A DNA stretch of 64,000 nt from Eledone cirrhosa (Eukaryota). Shown here in pieces: positions 707 through 64,000 of this stretch (position 1 is the stretch's first letter; the number at the start of each line of letters is the position of its first letter). The stretch lies in the NCBI GenBank assembly GCA_964016885.1, contig OZ024743.1:63612001-63676000 (forward strand), in the 5' to 3' direction. Under the pieces are notes generated by a model, which was not told the origin of the DNA, searched no databases, and worked only from the letters and a program-made list of their open reading frames with translations. The position numbers were made by a program, and so were the translations under genes.

Positions 707-1064
707 CTGAGATTCTCAAACTTTTAGGGCCACCGCCCCCCTCACAGCCACGTAATAGCCTCAAAGACCCCCACCTTTATCTCCAGAGTGACCTGCCTAC
801 ACACAAAATGTAAATAATATATAATAAATAAAATCATTGATTGGTATATAATAAATAATATAACATATACTATGTATAAATAAATATTATATATTTTTTA
901 TTTTACTATATTTATATATAATATGTATCATTTGATATTTAATATACTATTATATCATCTCTACTCCCACCACTTCCCCCCACTGCCTCCATAGGCTACA
1001 GTGGTCCCCTGGACCTTCTCAATGCCCCCAGAGGGGGCGGTAGTACCCACTTTGAGAACCTCTT
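707..1064. mobile_element. hAT-type MITE
   Basis: TIRs ctgagattctcaaa / tttgagaacctctt, inverted subterminal accgccccc / gggggcggt, and a near-identical 8-bp TSD tactagag/aactagag. Confidence 0.7.
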
Positions 1065-2061
1065 AACTAGAGGATTCCTGTGAGGGTGTTTGGTTCTTGT
1101 AACATCTTAACCTCACTATCACCCATGCCAATACTCCCAAAACTATTAAAGAGAAACTCTAGTGCCCTTCGTTGTGGCATGTGATTGAGTGTGTCTTCTC
1201 CCACATATTTTTTTTTTATAGATTATGTTTATTTATATGCATTCAATGGTGGAATGGTTAAGAAGATAAGAAGTTTTGCTTTGAAATCTTAACCTCCAGT
1301 TTTTTTATTACACTTTCATGGAATCTTTGGCAAGTATCGTTTACCATAGCATAAATATATATATAAACTACATAATGCAATGGTTGTTGCCTGATGATAT
1401 TTGTTGCTCTAGAACTAGTGTAGATTTGGTTGTTATTCTAAGAGTGTTTGGGGAGTAGATCTAAAGGGCATTATCGATTTTATTTTATGTCTAGTATCAT
1501 ATATATCTGGTGAGTAAGGATGAGTGTAGGGTTATGGATTATATTTACTTGAGTTGTTTTAGTGTCGATTTTTTTCCATTTAAATTAGGTCAATTAACAG
1601 TCATAGCTATATATGTGTGTGTATTTCAGTCACACAATGGTCTTCATTTAAGATTTATTTAGCATGAAAATGTGGCATGTTTTCTTCAAAGCAACTATGC
1701 TTTGATCTGGGTTCAGTATGGTTACACTGCTTTAGTAGAAGAAAAAGCATTAAAATATTTGTTGTATTTATGTTTATGTTTATGCAATGGGCTTCATTTA
1801 AGACTTTATTTAGCATAGAAATATGGCATAGGGCTATTATGGAATGCTCCTATCATTTTCCTGACTTCTTTGAAAACTCGCTAGAATTCAGAATACTATA
1901 GCAGCAATGTTGTTTAATAGAATCAAGCAGAAATAAAATGTAGATGAAATATTATTAAAGAGAAATACAAATAGTAACAAAATTTAAATAATATAAAAGC
2001 AATTGCCTTATATGAGTGTAAAAGATTTCATTTAAACTATACCATTTATTATTATCATTGT

Positions 2062-2355
2062 TAGGGCAGTGGATTGTCTGTATTGGTAGAACATCAGACA
2101 CCATGCTTTAGAGTTATGTGCCTTTATGTTCTGAGTTCAAATCCCGCCAAGGTTAGCTTTGCCTTTCATCTTTACGGGGTCGATAAAATAAAGCACCAGT
2201 AACACACTGGGGTCGATTTCCCCTCCCTTCAAATTGCTGGCCTTGTGCCTAAAGTAGAAACAATTATTATTATAATTATAGTCGATAAAATAAAGCACCA
2301 GTAATGCACTGGGGCGATTTCTGGCATTGTGCCAAAAGTAGAAACATTATTATTA
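2062..2355 (+). mobile_element. tRNA-derived SINE family A plus a partial 3' copy
   Basis: B-box gttcaaatcc, central tttgcctttcatc..cggggtcgataaaataaag, 3' end gtagaaacaattatt; matches many copies in the window. Confidence 0.8.
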
Positions 2356-2699
2356 TAATTATATTTGCTACTGTTTACTTCAGATGTGTATTGCTTTGGC
2401 TGCCATAAGTTTCTTTCTTTCATTGTTTAAAACACACATATTGTAGCAGTCTCTTGATATTCTCTTGTTAATAAGTTAATAAAGTATCTACTTCACACTG
2501 TAGAGGGCGTAGCTTCTATTTTGCACCTTACAGGGAAGAAATTATTAAAAAAAAGATATTTTTGAATTCTTGGTTGAAGAAGCATCCATCAATAGATTCC
2601 TGATAACCATCAAAACTTAACCCCCACCAAACACAGGCACATTTGCAACAATACCAACTCCATATTCAGAAAGTTTTAAATCTCATGCTCAGTCTGTAA

Positions 2700-3850
2700 A
2701 GAATGCCTTCTCTCTTCTGTATGTGCTGACTGTTGAGACATTATGGTGGAGACTGGAGCTGTTGAAGTGTAAACCAAGACATGGAAGAGTTGCATTAGTA
2801 TATGCAGCTAGCATCACTATGATGGTGTTGAACACCTTAGAGGTGGTTATCACCTCATTAAAAGAGTACAAAATGCTGACAGAAGCAAGACCGATTTGGA
2901 CAACTTCGTGGGTTTGCAGCTTGGCACCTCAAGAAGAAAGTCTATGCTGTCTAGTTAGGTCTGGATCTCCAGATGGACAGGAACTGTGATGAAATAATGA
3001 GTCGGGTAGTCAGTCTCACCTAGAAATGAACTGAGAGGAAGCTATCCTGGATAGAAGTGGCAGATGCATATATCAGCTGTCATACATTACTGCCTGACCT
3101 TGCCCCAAATCTCGTCTAAGCAGATTGGAGCATCTTCTTTTTCATTTCTTATGGCTACACGGCATCTGGAATTTTGTCAGGTGCTTACAGCCCTCTATCA
3201 GTTGAGCAACACTGTAGGTGGAAATTCCCCATTAGCTTTCCATAGAAGACTGGTGGTGGGTAAAAGAGATGACATTCTTAGGGGAATTTTTGGCATTAGC
3301 CATAATGAACTGACTACTTTGTTCTGGGGGGCTTTCAACCCAAGGATTATGGGTAATTTACAGAAATCTCTGGCCTATCAGTGCTACTGGGGAGCACTGC
3401 TGGTTTGAAATAAATTCTACAAGCACAGAAGTGCTGTCAGACAGATTTGTTCAAGATGTGCACTATTCTGCATGAAACTTATTCAGTGTCTGTGATCATT
3501 GCTGACTTGTGAGGTTTTGCCAAACAGCTGTTGATGTATGAAGGATGGATTCAACTGTCAGTCAAAACCATCATGAAGATTACCTTGCCACCTTCTTTTG
3601 CCCAGGAAGGATAGGCAATTTTCCTCTCTTGTGGCTGGGGAACAAGAAATTGTGTGTTGAACAAGGCTGAAAGGACTGAAGACAAATATATTAATAGTCC
3701 CACATGGAAAGGAAGGTAAGGCCTCCCAGTATATTTGTTAAAAGGTGGATGAATGCAGCAAGATTGGCCTGAGTGAATGGCTTACTCTAAGCATGTGCCT
3801 GTAGGCTGGAGAGAATAGAAGAGAGAGGAGTCCTTGCTTATTGAGCCCTT
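2700..3850 (+). mobile_element. Degenerate Tx1-family ORF2 3' fragment
   Basis: Translation LEFCQVLTALYQ...GKRDDILRG...MGNLQKSLAYQCYWGAL matches the ORF2 C-terminus at 23.1-23.4 kb. Confidence 0.8.
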
Positions 3851-37019: not shown

Positions 37020-38670
37020 TTATGTTAACCTAGGATATTTGTCTTAACCCTAAACACCTCTAAACATGTTTTCCACTAACCGTACTTGTTAATCCTAAAT
37101 GCCTCTAAACAGGTTTTCTATTGACCATCCTTGTTACTCTTATACACTTCTAAACATATTTTCTATTGAACATCCATGATAACCCTAAGCACCTCTAAAC
37201 ATGTTTTTCCTTTAACATCCTTGTTAACCCTAAACATATCTAAACTCGTTTCTCACTTACCTTCCTTGTTAACCCTAAACACCTCTAAACATATTTTCCA
37301 CTAACCATGCTTGTTAACCCTAAACACCTCTAAACATGTTTTCCACTAACCATGCTTGTTAACCCTAAACACCTCTAAACATGTTTTCCACTAATCATCC
37401 TTGTTAAACCTAAACACATCTAAACATGTTTTCTATTGACCAACGTTGTTAACCCTAAACACCTCTAAATATATTTCCCACTAACCATCCTTGTTAACCC
37501 TAAACACCTCTAAATGTTTTCTATTGACCATCCTTGTTACCCCTACACACCTCAAAACATGTTTTCTATTGAAAATCCTTGTTACCCCTACACACATCTA
37601 AACATGTTTTCTATTGACCATCCTTGTTACCTTTAAACACCTCTAAACATATTTTCTATTGAACATTCTTGATAGCCCTAAACACCTCTAAATATGTTTT
37701 CAACTTACCCCTAAGTCCCTCTAAGTATGTTTTCCTGTTAACATCTTTGTTAAACCCAAACACCTCTAAACATGTTTTCTATTGAGAATCCTTGTTAACC
37801 CTAAACACTTCTAAACATGTTTCCACTAACCATGCTTCTTAACCCTAAACACCTCTAAGCATGTTTTCTATTGGCCATTCGTGTTACCCCTAAACACCTC
37901 TAAACATGCTTTCTATTGACCATCGTTGTTAACCCTAAACACCTCTAAACATGTTTTCCACTAACCGTACTTGTTAACCCTAAATGCCTCTAAACAGGTT
38001 TTCTATTGACCATCCTTGTTACCCTTATACACCTCTAAACATATTTTCTATTGAACATCCTTGATAATCCTAAGCACCTCTAAACATGTTTTCCCTTTAA
38101 CAACCTTGTTAACCCTAAACATATCTAAACATATTTTCCACTAACGATCCTTGTTAACCCTAAACACCTCTAAACATGATTTCCACTAACGATGCTTGTT
38201 AGCCCTAACACCTCTAAACATGTTTTCTATTGGCCATTGTTGTTAATCCTAAACACCTCTAAACATGTTTTCCACTAACCATCCTTGTTAACCCTAAACA
38301 CCGCTAAACATGTTTTCTATTGAGCATCCTTGTTAACCATAAACAGCTCTAAACATGTTTTCTATTGGCCATTTGTGATAGCCCTAAACACCCCTAAACA
38401 TGCTTTCTATTGACCATCGTTGTTAACCCTAAACATCTCTAAACATGTTTTCCACTAACTGTACTTGTTAATCCTAAATGACTCTAAACATGTTTTCTAT
38501 TTACCATCCTTGTTACCTCTAAACACGTCTAAACAATTTCTATTGAACTTCCTTGATAACCCTAAACACTTCTAAACATATTTTCTATTGAACTTCCTTG
38601 ATAACCCTAAACACCTCAAAACATGTTTTCTATTGACCATTCTTGTTAACCTTAAATATGTCTAAACAGA
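37020..38670. repeat. 45-bp tandem satellite, roughly 36 units
   Basis: Unit ccttgttaaccctaaacacctctaaacatgtttt(ccactaac|ctattgac)cat; period 45 (37271 to 37316). Confidence 0.97.
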
Positions 38671-43820: not shown

Positions 43821-44190
43821 CATGACCATGACCATTGACAACCTGCCAATCAATATCTATCTATTTCATACATGTATGAAAAATAAAATCAATTGCTTAA
43901 ATTTTCTTAATGAGATGTTTCTATCATGTATCAATGTATCAATGATTCAATGTGTAATTATCCCCCATTTGACTTGAGAAGAAAGGCATATGTACAAGTA
44001 TTAACCATAAGGTGGTACCACCATTTCAATTCACTGCTGAAAATTAAACTGCACTAACAACCTGTGATACGATTTCCTGCTGATCTATACAAGTCAATAA
44101 TGCCACTTTTGTGTATTGCTTCATTCAACCTGCTAGAAATAACAGCTAAATAATTCTTTCCTGACTATATTTCTAATAAAAGACACTGTC

Positions 44191-45248
44191 TTGCTCATTA
44201 TGTAGGAAAGGTGTAGGTAGGAACTCCATTCTCTGCCCCAAATGCAAACAATGGGTACACAAGAGATGTAGCGGGATCTCAGGATGCTTAATTAAGAATG
44301 TAGGCTTCACATGCAGCAGCTGTGCTGGGACAGCAAGCAGCAAACAGCCACAGGAAACAAGTACCACCAATCTCTGGGAGGGCTCTGTAGAAACAGTAGA
44401 CAGCTTCTGCTACCTAGGTGACCGAATTAGCAGCAGAGGTGGGTGTTCAGAAAGTACAATAACTAGGGTAAGAACAGGATGGAAGAAGTTCAGGGAACTA
44501 CTGCCACTGCTAGCTGCAAAAGGCTTCTCCCTCAAAATGAAAGGCAGACTGTATGATGCGTGTATCCAAACAGCAATGTTACATGGTAGTGAGACCTGGA
44601 CGCTGAAGGTGGAAGACTTATGTAGATTGGAAAGAAACGAAGCTTGCATGCTTACGCGAACGGCAAAGCATAAATGAATTGAGAGAGAGACTGAGCATAA
44701 GAGGAATCAAATGGTGTGTGCAGGAGGGGCGGTTGCGTTGGTATGGACATGTGATATGTATGAAGGATGACAGCTGCATAAAAAGGTGCAGAGCACTAGA
44801 AGTCAATGGAAACCGTGGAGTGGGGAGACCCAAGAAGACCTGGGATGAGGTGATAAAAGCCGACCTTACCCAATTACACCTCTCAAAGGCGATGACACAC
44901 GACCGTGACCTCTGGCGTCACGCAGTAATACAGAGTACCCGACCTCCCATGGGTACAAGCTGAAGCATATAGACAATATGCCCCCACACCCTCCCACTGC
45001 AAAGTGGTCGTGGAAGTGCCACAAAAAAAAGCACCCAGCCCACACTGTAAAGTGGACGTGTAGGCGCCACGGAAAAAGCACCCAGCACTCACTGTAAATG
45101 AGGTTGGTGTTAGGAAGGGCATCCAGTTGTAGAAATCAAGCCAAAATAAGTTCCTGTATGAGCAAGGCATGGTCAGCCAACCAGACACTGCCCACAACAG
45201 GACAACCCGTCTAACCCATGCTAGCATGGAAGAACGGACGTAAAACGG

Positions 45249-47074: not shown

Positions 47075-48265
47075 TTGCAACACTTAATGTTGGCATTCTC
47101 AGAGGTAGATCTGCTGAAATAGCGGAGATGCTGGAGAGAAGGCATGTGGATGTGTGCTGCATGCAAGAGGTGAGATGGAAAGGTGCCTCTGCGAGACTAG
47201 TCGTAGGCAAACATCTTAGCTATAAGCTTTTTTGGGTAGGTAAGGATGATGGGTTAGGGGCAGTAGGCATTTTCCTGGCTGAGAGATGGATAAATAAGAC
47301 AATAGAGGTAGTTCAAGTTAGTAATCGAATAATTAAGATTAGATTAGTTGTAGGCAGAAGACTACTGACAATCATCTCTGCCTATGTTCCCCAAGCAGGC
47401 CTAGGCAAAGAAGAGAAAGACTGCTTTTACGAGCAACTTTTACAAACAACCGCAATGACAGAGGATGGAGACATCGTTATGCTAGCAGGGGACTTCAATG
47501 GTCATGTGGAACAGCTCCAGGATGGTTACACTGGGGTACATGGTGGGCACGGTTACGACTCAAGAAATGAAGAAGGAGTGAGACTTCTTGAATTTTGTGA
47601 TGCAAGTACACTGACTATTTGCAACACTAACTTCCAGAAACCTGCCAACCACCTAATAACCTACAAATAAGGTGAGCACATAAGCCAGATTGACTTCTTA
47701 CTAGTTAGGCAGCGGGTGAGGCAGATGGTGTCAAATACCAAGGCATACCCTGGGGGAGAATGTACCCCACAGCATAGGTTAGTCATTAGTGATATCTCAG
47801 TGATCAAGAGATGGAATGAGACATACAGGAAGGTGTGGAGAAGAAAGGTCTGGAAGCTAAAAGACCTTTCACTAAAATACAAATTTAGGAAAGCCCTTCA
47901 AGATGTGTATGACGAAAAAGAAGACGATTTAGAGATGTATGATATAGATAATAACTGGAATTTCTTACGTGACAACTTACTGCAGGCTACTGATGAAACT
48001 TGTGGCTGGAGCAGAGCTCCAACCAGACAGAGAGTGACCTGGTGGTTGAACAGCACAGTAGATAAGGCTATTAGAGACAAAAGACTAGCATGGAAGGCTT
48101 GGAAAAAGGGTGGGAGTAGAGAAGGATATACAGCCGCTAAGAAAGAAGCTAGACATCAGGTGTACTTAGCACGCAGGGAGGCTGAGAGTAGGAGGTTTGC
48201 CAATGTTCTGCAATGGGAAGATCAGAGGCGTGCGGTGTTCCACATTGCAAGGCAGTGTGTCAATG
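47075..48265 (+). mobile_element. RTE LINE 5' fragment (APE endonuclease pseudogene)
   Basis: TLNVG, CMQEVRW, SAYVPQ, GDFNGHV, QID, QHRLV; in-frame stop at ~47670. Confidence 0.92.
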
Positions 48266-48404
48266 CAAATCAATGTCAATGCAAATGTTGTTTCATTTGT
48301 AAGAAATCATAAGGATGATTTCTTATGAATGAAACAGTTCTAGTCCTGTAGAAGTCATTTCTATAATAAAATAAATATATATATATATATATATGTATAT
48401 ATCA

Positions 48405-56552: not shown

Positions 56553-56765
56553 CGTTTCTGAATTTGTTTAGCAAGATTCTTTATCTGAAATCGTGTGTTG
56601 AAACCGATATTGTTATACTTTGGGAGGGTCATGTTGCCAATAAGAAACACACGCACCAGTTGCTTTCACTTCAATTTAATTTATTATATATTTATAAATT
56701 TACAAATTTATAAATTTCTGGTTGGTTGGTTGGTTCCACAACCAGATAGTTGTTTATATATATAT

Positions 56766-56810
56766 AGTCATAGTTCTTTCGTCACACACTCTGTGACCTC
56801 TTCAGTGACT
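56766..56810 (-). ncRNA. Minimal type I hammerhead ribozyme motif (left arm)
   Basis: agtca-CTGAAGA-g-gtcaca[gagtg]tgtgac-GAAA-gaac-TA-tgact. Confidence 0.72.
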
Positions 56811-56943
56811 GGGGATTTCTTTCTTCGTTTCTGTGCCTTTCCTTTCTTCTATCCTACGCCATTTTTTGCCATTTTGCCACACACAAACAAAATGGCGTAG
56901 GATAGAAGAAAGGAAAGGCACAGAAACGAAGAAAGAAATCCCC

Positions 56944-56988
56944 AGTCACTGAAGAGGTCACAAAGTGTGTGACGAAAGAACTATGACT
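56944..56988 (+). ncRNA. Minimal type I hammerhead ribozyme motif (right arm)
   Basis: agtca-CTGAAGA-g-gtcaca[aagtg]tgtgac-GAAA-gaac-TA-tgact; stem I agtca/tgact, stem II gtcaca/tgtgac. Confidence 0.75.
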
Positions 56989-57139
56989 ATATATATATAA
57001 ACAACTATCTGGTTGTGGAACCAACCAACCAACCAGAAATTTATAAATTTGTAAATTTATAAATATATAATAAATTAAATTGAAGTGAAAGCAACTGGTG
57101 CGTGTGTTTCTTATTGGCAACATGACCCTCCCAAAGTAT

Positions 57140-57320
<181 letters not shown>

Positions 57321-57514
57321 GATAAATCTACCAAGAGTTTACGGTAGTGTCCAATCCGTATGAAGAACTCAATGTAATCCGGATATCATGGAAAGAAGAG
57401 ATGCAATGAAAAATCACTTACGGTGAAAGATAAACGGAATACAGAGTCAAGATAAAATATTAAAAAAATAATGAATAAAACAATGAAACAGTTCCTTATA
57501 TTAAACAAAAAAAG

Positions 57515-57669
57515 TTCATTATTTAACGATCGTTTCTAGGATATATATGTGTTAGAATTGGCATGCATATTCAACAGATCTATGTACAAAATTATACAAA
57601 ATTATACAAACTATCAAAATTAAATATACATACCAAACACATATATATGCCGTCTTCAGAAATAATGAA
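57515..57669 (-). ncRNA. Type I hammerhead motif with long stem II (left arm)
   Basis: Reverse complement of 60015-60169. Confidence 0.68.
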
Positions 57670-58099
57670 ATATATTTATTGATAATAACAACAATTCAAA
57701 ATTTCAGGTCCGTTTGGGAACAGAGTTCAAATTGACCAATGAAAATACAAAAAATTTTATGCAGTTAGGTGTGTGTATATACATGTAATTAACTTCGTAC
57801 ACATATTTGCACGAAGATATATGTTCACATGCATACGCATGCCAAAAAGATGTATGTAAATACAAAAATTCAAGGCTAATGTCTCTGTAAGTTTATAATC
57901 TACAGATAAAATGCGTATAGACACGCAAATATAAAATAAATGTATACACACATTCATATACTCACACATATTCGTACACTCACACACACACGCGCGTATA
58001 TGCATAAACATACACATAACTACGAACTTAAGATAACCATAAGTACACCACCAACACATCAAACCAACCACAATATCTCCTCAAACACAGAATTAACGA

Positions 58100-58530
58100 A
58101 AGGCTGCAACTGCAGAAACAAAGCAAACTGCCCACCAAAAGGAAATTGTCCCGCTAACAACATAGTCCACAAATGCAATGTCAAAACCAAAGACTCCACC
58201 TGCTCACACATAGGAGCCACCTCCAACAACCCCAAGACAAGGTTCAACACCCACAAACACAGTTCCAAAAATGCCGCACCGGCTAACACAACATCTCCAG
58301 CAGAAAAAATCAACAGTTATAAAAACAAGAACACAGAACATGATTTGACCCGGAGTGCGCCCAAAAGAGCCACCCCCCACCAAAACAATAGAAATGAATG
58401 CAGATCATGCTCCCAAGAACCACTTGAAATAATGAAATCTAAGGACATCCTATCAAATAAACGACAGGAACCAACCATATCGTGCAATCACAAACCAAAA
58501 AAAACATTTAAATATTACAAACCTAATTAA
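58100..58530 (+). pseudogene. Penelope-type GIY-YIG endonuclease C-terminal fragment, hypermutated T>C
   Basis: CNCR...CP..GNC...NIV(Y)KC...(Y)IGAT...KTRF..HK...C..C..E...NKR.E...C.H pattern of PLE endonucleases. Confidence 0.85.
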
Positions 58531-59436
58531 CAACATCATTCCAGAAACCAACATACAACCCAATTTAAATGCTAGTTAACCCACAAATTTAACCTAACCA
58601 AAATTCCACCACAGATGAGAACACAAAACACTGTGCAACCACAAACTGTGAAAAACCTTCAAATACCACCAACATACACCCAGCAATTCAATCTATAGAT
58701 CAACCCTAATTCACTCAACCCTCCATTAAAACTCCCCCACAGACAAAATACAACAAAATATCGCGTATTCAACGACAGAGAAACAATCCCCAGCACTATA
58801 GACCCAACTAATACACACCCTAGAAATACATCTACAATCCGGTTCCAAACTTGGTCAACCCAAAAACTTAACCCAATTGGCTCAAAAATAGTATCCTAAT
58901 ACAGATGGATTACAGAGTGTCATGTAATCATAGAATGGGATAGGTTTTAGATGTACACCCAGTCAATATATTCCCTACAATTTTTGAAAAAATATGTATA
59001 TGTATGTATATATATGTATGTGTATACATGTATATATATGTGTATATATATGCATGCATATGCATATGTGTATGCATTAATTTCAATCTCTGTTTACCCA
59101 CAACTATATTCCACTATTGATAAAATACAATATCTGTCCCAACTATTACATACCCAATTAACATATACTATAGAAATTAATATATAATTTTCAATTTAGT
59201 TAACCCACAATTCATATTCCACCACCGATGCAATACACCACCTGTCTCTTCCCCACTACCAAATTCACCCCCCAACACTGATACCACAACGTTAATAATT
59301 CCAACCTAGCCACACCATAACCAACACTCTACTACCACCCAACTTCAAAACCCCGCCTCAAACACCACAAACCCAAGCAATTTACACCCCAGAAATCAAC
59401 ACATCAACTATCCTTAGCCCAGCCAACCTACAACCT

Positions 59437-59585
59437 TTGAACCTTGTCTTGGGGTTGTTGGAGGTGGCTCCTATGTGTGAGCAGGTGGAGTCTTTGGTTT
59501 TGACATTGCATTTGTAGACTATGTTGTTAGCGGGACAATTTCCTTTTGGTGGGCAGTTTGCTTTGTTTCTGCAGTTGCAGCCTTT
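59437..59585 (-). pseudogene. Inverted truncated copy of the GIY-YIG fragment
   Basis: ORF 59382-59744 is identical to the left copy except IVYK vs IVHK; breaks off after KTRF. Confidence 0.85.
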
Positions 59586-60014
59586 CGTTAATTCTGTGTT
59601 TGAGGAGATATTGTGGTTGGTTTGATGTGTTGGTGGTGTACTTATGGTTATCTTAAGTTCGTAGTTATGTGTATGTTTATGCATATACGCGCGTGTGTGT
59701 GTGAGTGTACGAATATGTGTGAGTATATGAATGTGTGTATACATTTATTTTATATTTGCGTGTCTATACGCATTTTATCTGTAGATTATAAACTTACAGA
59801 GACATTAGCCTTGAATTTTTGTATTTACATACATCTTTTTGGCATGCGTATGCATGTGAACATATATCTTCGTGCAAATATGTGTACGAAGTTAATTACA
59901 TGTATATACACACACCTAACTGCATAAAATTTTTTGTATTTTCATTGGTCAATTTGAACTCTGTTCCCAAACGGACCTGAAATTTTGAATTGTTGTTATT
60001 ATCAATAAATATAT

Positions 60015-60169
60015 TTCATTATTTCTGAAGACGGCATATATATGTGTTTGGTATGTATATTTAATTTTGATAGTTTGTATAATTTTGTATAATTTTGTAC
60101 ATAGATCTGTTGAATATGCATGCCAATTCTAACACATATATATCCTAGAAACGATCGTTAAATAATGAA
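60015..60169 (+). ncRNA. Type I hammerhead motif with long stem II (right arm)
   Basis: ttcattattt-CTGAAGA-[~116-nt hairpin]-GAAA-cgatcg-TT-aaataatgaa; 10-bp stem I and palindromic stem III. Confidence 0.7.
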
Positions 60170-60519
60170 CTTTTTTTGTTTAATATAAGGAACTGTTTCA
60201 TTGTTTTATTCATTATTTTTTTAATATTTTATATATATATATATATATATAAGCCAACAAACAAAACTAATAGAGAGCTATGCAAAGAGTACTTATGGTA
60301 TAACCCCGAATACAATAGTTCCATTAGTACAACGGTTTAATCAACTGTTATAGAAACACGTGTCAATAAATTCCTTTCAACTAAACTGTATCAATTCAAA
60401 TCTTTCTATTTTTCTCCGGATTACTTTTGGAACTACAACTGGAACCGTCGAGCAAACTCTACGTGAGCTGATAATCTACTGTGTGTAATATTTATATTAC
60501 AACACAACGGAAAATACTG

Positions 60520-64000
<3,481 letters not shown>

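Follow-up and report, generated by a model that had tools for sequence, protein, structure and literature searches.

ADAR-type A-to-G hypermutation has been described in retroviral DNA, namely for RAV-1 (Felder 1994), avian leukosis virus (Hajjar and Linial 1995), and HTLV-2/STLV-3 (PMC8586724), and ADAR-type clusters in BLV proviruses span about 70 bp (PMC8025556). Such marks are rare and consist of A>G changes clustered on one strand and fixed by reverse transcription, as at the locus described here. However, these proviruses are exogenous viruses in infected cells, whereas the present case is an endogenous Penelope-like element with 232 sites over 1.4 kb, in antisense orientation and in two arms. 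Endogenous LTR retrotransposons that were DNA-edited by APOBEC (PMC4866542, PMC2873906) likewise keep deaminase scars of the retroelement cycle in the genome. Those scars are G>A changes caused by cytidine deamination of the cDNA in LTR elements of vertebrates, while here A>G changes attributed to an RNA template are found in a non-LTR element. According to the same sources, 19 invertebrate genomes are devoid of APOBEC DNA editing, and A-to-G changes were used as a filter.

Hyper-editing of repeat-derived dsRNA in metazoans (PMC5625713) resembles our case in its inverted-repeat substrate and its depletion of 5′ G, and it reaches very high levels in Octopus, but there it was seen in RNA reads only and here it is fixed in DNA. 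For L1, ADAR1 has been reported to restrict the element without editing (PMC5224506). Concerning the reverse transcription of Penelope-like elements, the in vitro work on the PAc protein of Poseidon (PMC11167929) and the hypothesis of self-priming and antisense templates (PMC3846280) agree with our locus in two start sites in the pLTR, extension of both target strands, and head-to-head insertions. The spacing of starts or ends is 30–40 nt for Poseidon (PMC11167929) and 137 nt here.

ADAR clusters in proviral DNA are known; for Penelope elements, or any endogenous element of the non-LTR kind, no report of an ADAR burst fixed in the genome was found in the literature covered, which comprised main texts of mostly freely accessible papers. 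The analysis concerns a window of 64,000 nt (the whole stretch of DNA that was analysed, C4:63612001-63676000) from Eledone cirrhosa.

Structure of the insertion

The insertion has the order (TA)n, A, extra base, B, extra base, B′, A′, (TA)n. Reference positions (ref) are those of one real 6.7-kb unit of the family, in which the reading frame lies at about ref 890–3380. The features are as follows.

57137..57317, no strand: (TA)n microsatellite, left target flank, assigned by sequence; family ends adjoin (TA)n at other loci
57318..58027, minus strand: piece A, pLTR/5′ region, ref 789 to 84, unedited; its outer end is the recurrent family end ref 789
57515..57669, minus strand: hammerhead-like motif, unedited mirror of that at 60015–60169, by sequence and fold
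58028..58028, plus strand: non-templated base at the A|B junction; this junction is seen only in the two arms of this locus
58029..59435, plus strand: piece B, sense fragment covering the end of the endonuclease and the 3′ region (ref 2881 to about 4303), 232 T>C (antisense A>G)
58036..58530, plus strand: remnant of the GIY-YIG endonuclease (164 codons and stop) in which T>C alters 25 residues
58879..59226, plus strand: low-editing zone, 0–33% of sites with 5′ U/A edited against 31–85% elsewhere, mostly where family copies differ most
59437..59655, minus strand: piece B′ (ref 3099 to 2881), which repeats the first 219 nt of B in inverted orientation, same edits at 32 of 33 sites
59657..60232, plus strand: piece A′, unedited pLTR from ref 84 to 652; its outer end is the second recurrent family end ref 652
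60015..60169, plus strand: hammerhead-like motif with stem I, CUGAAGA core, long stem II, GAAA, and palindromic stem III
60233..60251, no strand: (TA)n microsatellite, right target flank, assigned by sequence

Both outer ends, ref 652 and ref 789, recur across family copies. Piece A shows two differences in 711 nt from its counterpart in copy L122, neither of them A>G or T>C, and in piece A′ none of the 64 A residues within ref 440–653 is changed. The edits begin 17 nt past the A|B junction.

The arms 57452–58247 and 59437–60232 differ by one base, 58168 C against 59516 T, a single difference which the sequence-only reading had already noticed. They agree at 61 of 62 T sites and share 32 of 33 changes, whereas about 26 disagreements among the 62 would be expected of separately edited molecules (P about 5e-14). 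Such mirror-identical edits mean that editing preceded the formation of the arms, and it is near certain that the two arms go back to a single edited molecule. The inverted arms seen here are therefore not the hairpin that was edited but arose after editing. Inosine was nearly never read as A by three retroviral enzymes (PMC10877575), which leaves the single difference at 58168 unexplained.

The A|B junction was searched for in the assembly and gave two matches, both at this locus, with no source locus elsewhere. It is also absent from the four close sister loci inspected; the nearest sister, at C1:114.84 Mb, lacks it. A splice origin was rejected, the flanks not being GT/AG. We lean slightly towards a junction that was already present in the RNA; a template jump, followed by duplication at the DNA level, is only a little less probable. 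The region of the nearest sister (C1:114839000-114868999, with L140, L122, and L141) is a compound nested inverted locus, 99.7–99.8% identical over piece A, and a possible source relative.

Other repeats were observed in the window. At 56607–57147, sharing the same (TA)n tract, there is a second near-perfect hairpin with 259-nt arms, a 23-nt spacer, and one C/T difference at 56791; it bears a minimal hammerhead-like motif near 56945–56990 and looks like the pLTR arms of another Penelope-type family. At 37042–38668 a unit of about 45 nt is repeated in tandem, with roughly 80% similarity between the copies. Older dispersed repeats form inverted pairs at 44188–44941 and 61048–61827 (72% alike) and at 47146–48269 and 62869–63995 (65% alike).

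Extent and spectrum of the changes

In the alignment with the closest copy, L022, 232 of the 236 substitutions within 58029–59433 are T>C. Two G>A, one A>T, one T>A, and a 2-nt gap make up the rest, and L022 has 531 T across the tract. The changes are thus of a single type, A>G, clustered on the antisense strand, as in ADAR hyper-editing, while sense-strand G>A changes of the APOBEC type number two against 232 T>C. Since only four differences in 1,405 nt from the nearest copy are not of the edited type, the insertion must be very young.

Every full-length alignment with the tract (49 loci compared) gave 210–233 T>C. Ordinary copies aligned to L022 had at most eight, with a mean of 3.0, in 80 alignments that are biased to close relatives and include some loci twice; with this maximum, chance is ruled out for the tract. 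T>C far above all other classes, with ADAR neighbour bias, is what the sequence-only reading had expected of such a tabulation. At two of the 232 sites, 58167 and 58221, the family itself varies, and the changes there may be something other than edits; six further sites coincide with family indels or variants. The tract is about three times as long as the interval 58100–58530, to which that reading had confined it and in which 62 of 125 reference T are now C.

The remaining observations of that reading on this interval stood up well. T is as scarce as counted by hand (37 of 300 in 58101–58400), the frame is open (58036–58527), and in all ten motifs named the guessed ancestral residues match those of the real copy L022. 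Its figure of about 15 changes of one type has grown to 62 T>C among 62 differences, in a tract that is larger still. Over the 164 codons, 67 differences from L022 were found, all T>C, with 25 amino-acid changes, and both core tyrosines of the GIY-YIG domain became His in the frame 58036–58527. These two changes agree with the proposed inactivation of the endonuclease, but that point is of little weight for this copy, which already lacks the first ~660 of 830 codons.

Editing along piece B is negatively correlated with family divergence (Spearman −0.55; 28 non-independent 50-nt windows). A dip where the copies diverge is as expected of an imperfect duplex. The low-editing zone also reaches about 100 nt into conserved sequence, and a strong internal fold was looked for as its cause with none seen.

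Neighbour preference and candidate enzyme

By 5′ neighbour, the antisense A residues of the tract were changed at 134 of 247 sites after U (54%), 85 of 178 after A (48%), 8 of 62 after C (13%), and 5 of 41 after G (12%). The excess of U/A over G (219/425 against 5/41) has p=7e-7, that over C p=3e-9. By 3′ neighbour, the counts are 40/64 for G, 83/179 for A, 23/61 for C, and 86/224 for U. The context with the highest rate is UAG (27/38), in line with the UAG preference suggested beforehand. Depletion of 5′ G is a conserved mark of ADAR (PMC5625713). Two details depart from published patterns: 5′ C is here as poor as 5′ G, although a review classes CA as ADAR-susceptible (PMC8586724), and at the 3′ position G comes first and A second, whereas 3′ A is favoured in invertebrate hyper-editing (PMC5625713). 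Context, strand, and spectrum follow ADAR rules, without a perfect fit at 5′ C and 3′ G.

The ADAR domain PF02137 matches at four loci of the genome. One of them, on C6, is an ADAR2-like gene with intact HAE, PCG, and SCSDK motifs (E 3e-102 against human ADAR2 structures).

Presence of the edited sequence in reads

Three sequencing runs of one sample, of unrecorded library type and probably the assembly's own and so not independent of it, were checked over 57700–58900. Each holds 0.78–0.79 of the words of the queried sequence. Contigs of 236–470 nt from all three runs match 57998–58247, 58218–58453, and 58431–58900 with zero differences, so that the presence in reads on which the sequence-only reading had made its case depend was found over 57998–58900. 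Contig depth is 11.5–15.1 over 57998–58247, which is duplicated in the arms, and 5.8–9.0 over the single-copy remainder. Zero-difference contigs in three runs exclude both a consensus error and a mixture of differently edited RNAs. Coming from one sample, they are also compatible with a clonal somatic event; the germline state is what we infer.

A second contig (467–468 nt, depth 3.7–6.4) occurs in all three runs over 58431–58521, with 91 nt in common and eight differences, and represents another copy, possibly an edited one. In a RAD run from X4, a different individual, 58151–58355 is not covered. One X4 read with at least 90% likeness lies at about 58602–58690, where unedited copies differ at 20 of 89 positions, which is a hint only. 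Among the sequencing runs listed, no RNA run contained the sequence, and edited RNA of the element was not observed.

The Penelope family

The family survey scored 150 of 55,300 candidates in the 3.0-Gb genome, and many of the scored copies sit in open frames of about 830 codons. Sister copies encode a single ORF of 830 aa with YRDD, RWR, and DKT motifs; 113 homologs were found at E<=1e-20, and RWR/RWK and DKT/DKS are present in homologs. The cysteines C24, C26, and C32 of the CxCX5C linker and the CxxC/CxH set C122, C125, E128, N141, C150, and H152 are invariant in 12 of 12 alignment rows. The Hydra clade is characterised by the lack of a CCHH finger within the GIY-YIG core; between the two tyrosine motifs the alignment shows no conserved Cys pair, and the family has two unconserved Cys there. 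PF01541 matches the C-terminal part below the cut-off (E=0.0074) and passes it in the homologs P0102 and P0108. The reverse transcriptase was not named by Pfam, the whole 830-aa frame gave nothing at E<=0.1, and a PDB sequence search with the family protein had no match.

The motif at 60015–60169 was assigned by what we take to be the layout of a hammerhead. Its fold (−46.9 kcal/mol) forms stems I–III of a putative ribozyme. Rfam, run on four sister loci, found no hammerhead and only simple-repeat miRNA-like matches below the gathering score. Insertion into (TA)n is seen at the ends of the window insert and also for L122–L131.

Judged by its motifs rather than by a tree, the family appears to be a Hydra-like Penelope element with a C-terminal GIY-YIG domain. 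It agrees with the Hydra clade (PMC8557442) in the RWR/RWK, DKT, CxCX5C, CxxC, and CxH motifs, in a putative hammerhead-like motif of the pLTR, and in (TA)n targets. Its unit is about 6.7 kb long with a long simple-repeat 3′ region, whereas Hydra elements are generally shorter than 3 kb (PMC8557442).

Head-to-head inversion was found in 12 of 12 pairs (L109–L119, L121), and in L120 and L122 with extra pieces; these 14 ordinary loci had been picked as inverted pairs and are not a random sample. Where reported, arm identity is 91–99.8% over up to 4.7 kb. Long, near-perfect head-to-head insertions are a common structure of the family. L110, L111, and L116 have an unpaired middle that holds the pLTR, the layout required of the parent of the window insert. 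Nine solo-pLTR hairpins (L123–L131) have an identical fold-back loop and ends 789|652 or 652|789; three of them share diagnostic variants in both arms, which suggests a small non-autonomous hairpin family.

Further edited loci

The genome was scanned with degenerate 35-letter patterns that demand at least three of six changes at favoured sites. Sensitivity was estimated as 0.72–0.80 at the editing level of this locus and 0.20–0.24 at half that level. With the endonuclease segment there were two T>C matches (both at this locus), no A>G match, and 1,623 unedited ones. The pLTR segment gave four A>G matches, all hyper-edited, 14 T>C matches, two of them hyper-edited, and 9,896 unedited ones. A T>C pattern at ref 2783 had no match in the genome, without a denominator for comparison. 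The other 12 of the 14 T>C matches (L091–L102) were dropped as an older subfamily with 70–77% identity and mixed spectra, L099 after a recheck. Within this subfamily, L091–L098 recur every ~125–155 kb at C4:203.8–204.7 Mb, which points to a large tandem segmental duplication.

Five further edited loci with differing edit sets were obtained (C4:21.0, C5:127.0, C12:32.4, and C27:10.3 Mb, and C1266), so the search for similar clusters that had been put forward from the one copy succeeded. Edited copies are rare, on the order of one per 1,000 segments; for copies with weak editing this figure is a minimum. The five loci pooled (seven arms, sites up to ref 630 only, with a slight ascertainment bias) were changed at 77/166 sites after 5′ U, 66/141 after A, 11/66 after C, and 4/52 after G, the latter against 143/307 for U/A, and at 15 of 17 UAG sites.

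At C4:21.0 Mb (L103), the edits of both hairpin arms lie on the same strand, at 32/92 (35%) and 23/61 (38%), with 0/12 in the loop. In its unpaired overhang, ref 653–789, none of 54 A is changed, against 55/153 in the stem (p=4e-9). Eight unedited hairpins with the same loop exist. The inward-reading strand carries T>C at the ref-652 ends of L103–L106 and at both ends of the window insert, which places the changed A on the template. The ref-789 end of L103 and L107 (C1266) carry A>G on this strand, the opposite sense, and need the extra assumption of passive copying from a parent locus.

In L103 (5132), L104, L105, and L106 the edits alter the GAAA core of the hammerhead, so these copies would have lost the predicted ribozyme. 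The edits end 13–40 nt before the ref-652 end in all four (ref 630–652); possible reasons are an effect of the helix end, or that the region used for priming was protected or selected. L106:4926-5120 is a short insertion whose 652-primed arm is edited and whose 789 arm, of ~30 nt, is not; it lies in a repeat rich in (CAT)n instead of pure (TA)n.

Discussion

We consider it probable, at roughly 0.85, that duplex Penelope RNA was hyper-edited by ADAR, reverse-transcribed from the two start sites of the family, and inserted into (TA)n. A transcript through a head-to-head inverted insertion would fold back, its stem being edited by ADAR and its unpaired part holding the sense pLTR. The element protein, supplied by intact copies, would prime on both target strands at ref 789 and ref 652, copy the unedited pLTR to ref 84, and then run into the edited antisense arm. 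Copying would reach ref ~4303 on one side and 3099 on the other, and the two products would be joined head to head. A Penelope-type protein, that of Poseidon, does cut and extend both strands in vitro and starts at two internal RNA sites (PMC11167929). Editing of an antisense or fold-back RNA before reverse transcription, as the sequence-only reading had proposed, accords with the spectrum, strand, neighbour bias, contigs, ADAR2-like gene, and five further loci.

Among the alternatives, action of an adenosine deaminase (ADAR or another) on DNA, be it cDNA in an RNA:DNA hybrid, fold-back cDNA, or an R-loop, is improbable but the strongest. In long matched hybrids, full-length ADAR2 does edit the DNA strand, in its usual context (PMC5389660), and no edited parent RNA would be needed; in L107 and in the ref-789 arm of L103 the A>G changes lie on what could be first-strand cDNA. 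However, both inward-reading strands of the window insert carry T>C and not A>G, piece A would have lain in the same hybrid and is yet unedited, and so would part 653–789 of L103 (0/54), whose two arms are equally edited at 35% and 38%. Nor can editing in situ yield mirror-identical changes in two arms. These could also be reached in two steps without copying one inosine-rich RNA twice, if an edited copy had become DNA elsewhere and was later copied from unedited transcripts, or if one arm converted the other. ADAR would still be the cause, and the shared edits would say nothing on the number of RNA molecules that built the insertion. Hairpins with an identical loop recur at eight other loci, so junction-bearing copies can propagate; a second edited copy was nevertheless found neither among the 40 scored of 2598 candidates in a DNA search nor with the edited patterns, the junction search gave no second locus, and the contig depth is that of a single copy. 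As four non-edit differences in 1405 nt leave little time as well, we regard this origin as slightly less probable than deamination of DNA.

To the last two explanations we give very little credence. The locus is a long inverted repeat and the three runs are one sample with the library type off record, so an assembly or sequencing error in a palindrome, or contamination of the DNA library by cDNA of edited RNA, is conceivable. Against such an artefact stand the zero-difference contigs in three of three runs, a 2:1 depth ratio that fits the duplication, family-typical ends in (TA)n with unique junctions, and five other loci with different edit sets, and hyper-edited RNA molecules would each differ. 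Least probable of all is misincorporation by the reverse transcriptase, that is, U:G mispairing at low dATP with U>C on a sense template. This would give sense-strand T>C without any antisense RNA, and biased dNTP pools offer an in vitro precedent for such mispairing. But no such errors occur in piece A, a product of the same enzyme, and the change starts 17 nt after the junction; a neighbour bias and confinement to hairpins would not be expected, and 32 errors would not repeat over two passes.

Editing of duplex RNA followed by reverse transcription may be more than a single event. We find somewhat better than even support for a recurring route from RNA to the germline, in which inverted Penelope insertions give fold-back transcripts, ADAR edits them, and the same machinery writes the edited RNA into inherited DNA. 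The edits would then be a barcode of one RNA copied from both pLTR start sites into two arms. If true, this barcode would settle how inverted insertions form, and the edits would record ADAR activity in germ cells.

To our knowledge, RNA editing is regarded as non-heritable, and the deaminase scars described for endogenous retroelements are mainly APOBEC-type G>A in LTR elements of vertebrates. From ADAR bursts fixed in the genome it would follow that retrotransposition can be completed by inosine-rich RNA; they would record that ADAR is active in cells passing on DNA and be an added source of clustered A>G mutation. For the host the effect is probably small, given the rarity of such copies and the fact that the present one is a dead fragment. 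For Penelope elements, the edits are in vivo evidence on the template strand and the number of template molecules, which goes beyond PMC11167929 and PMC3846280. The template strand and the origin of the head-to-head arms, left open in PMC3846280 and PMC8557442, become testable from genomes alone.
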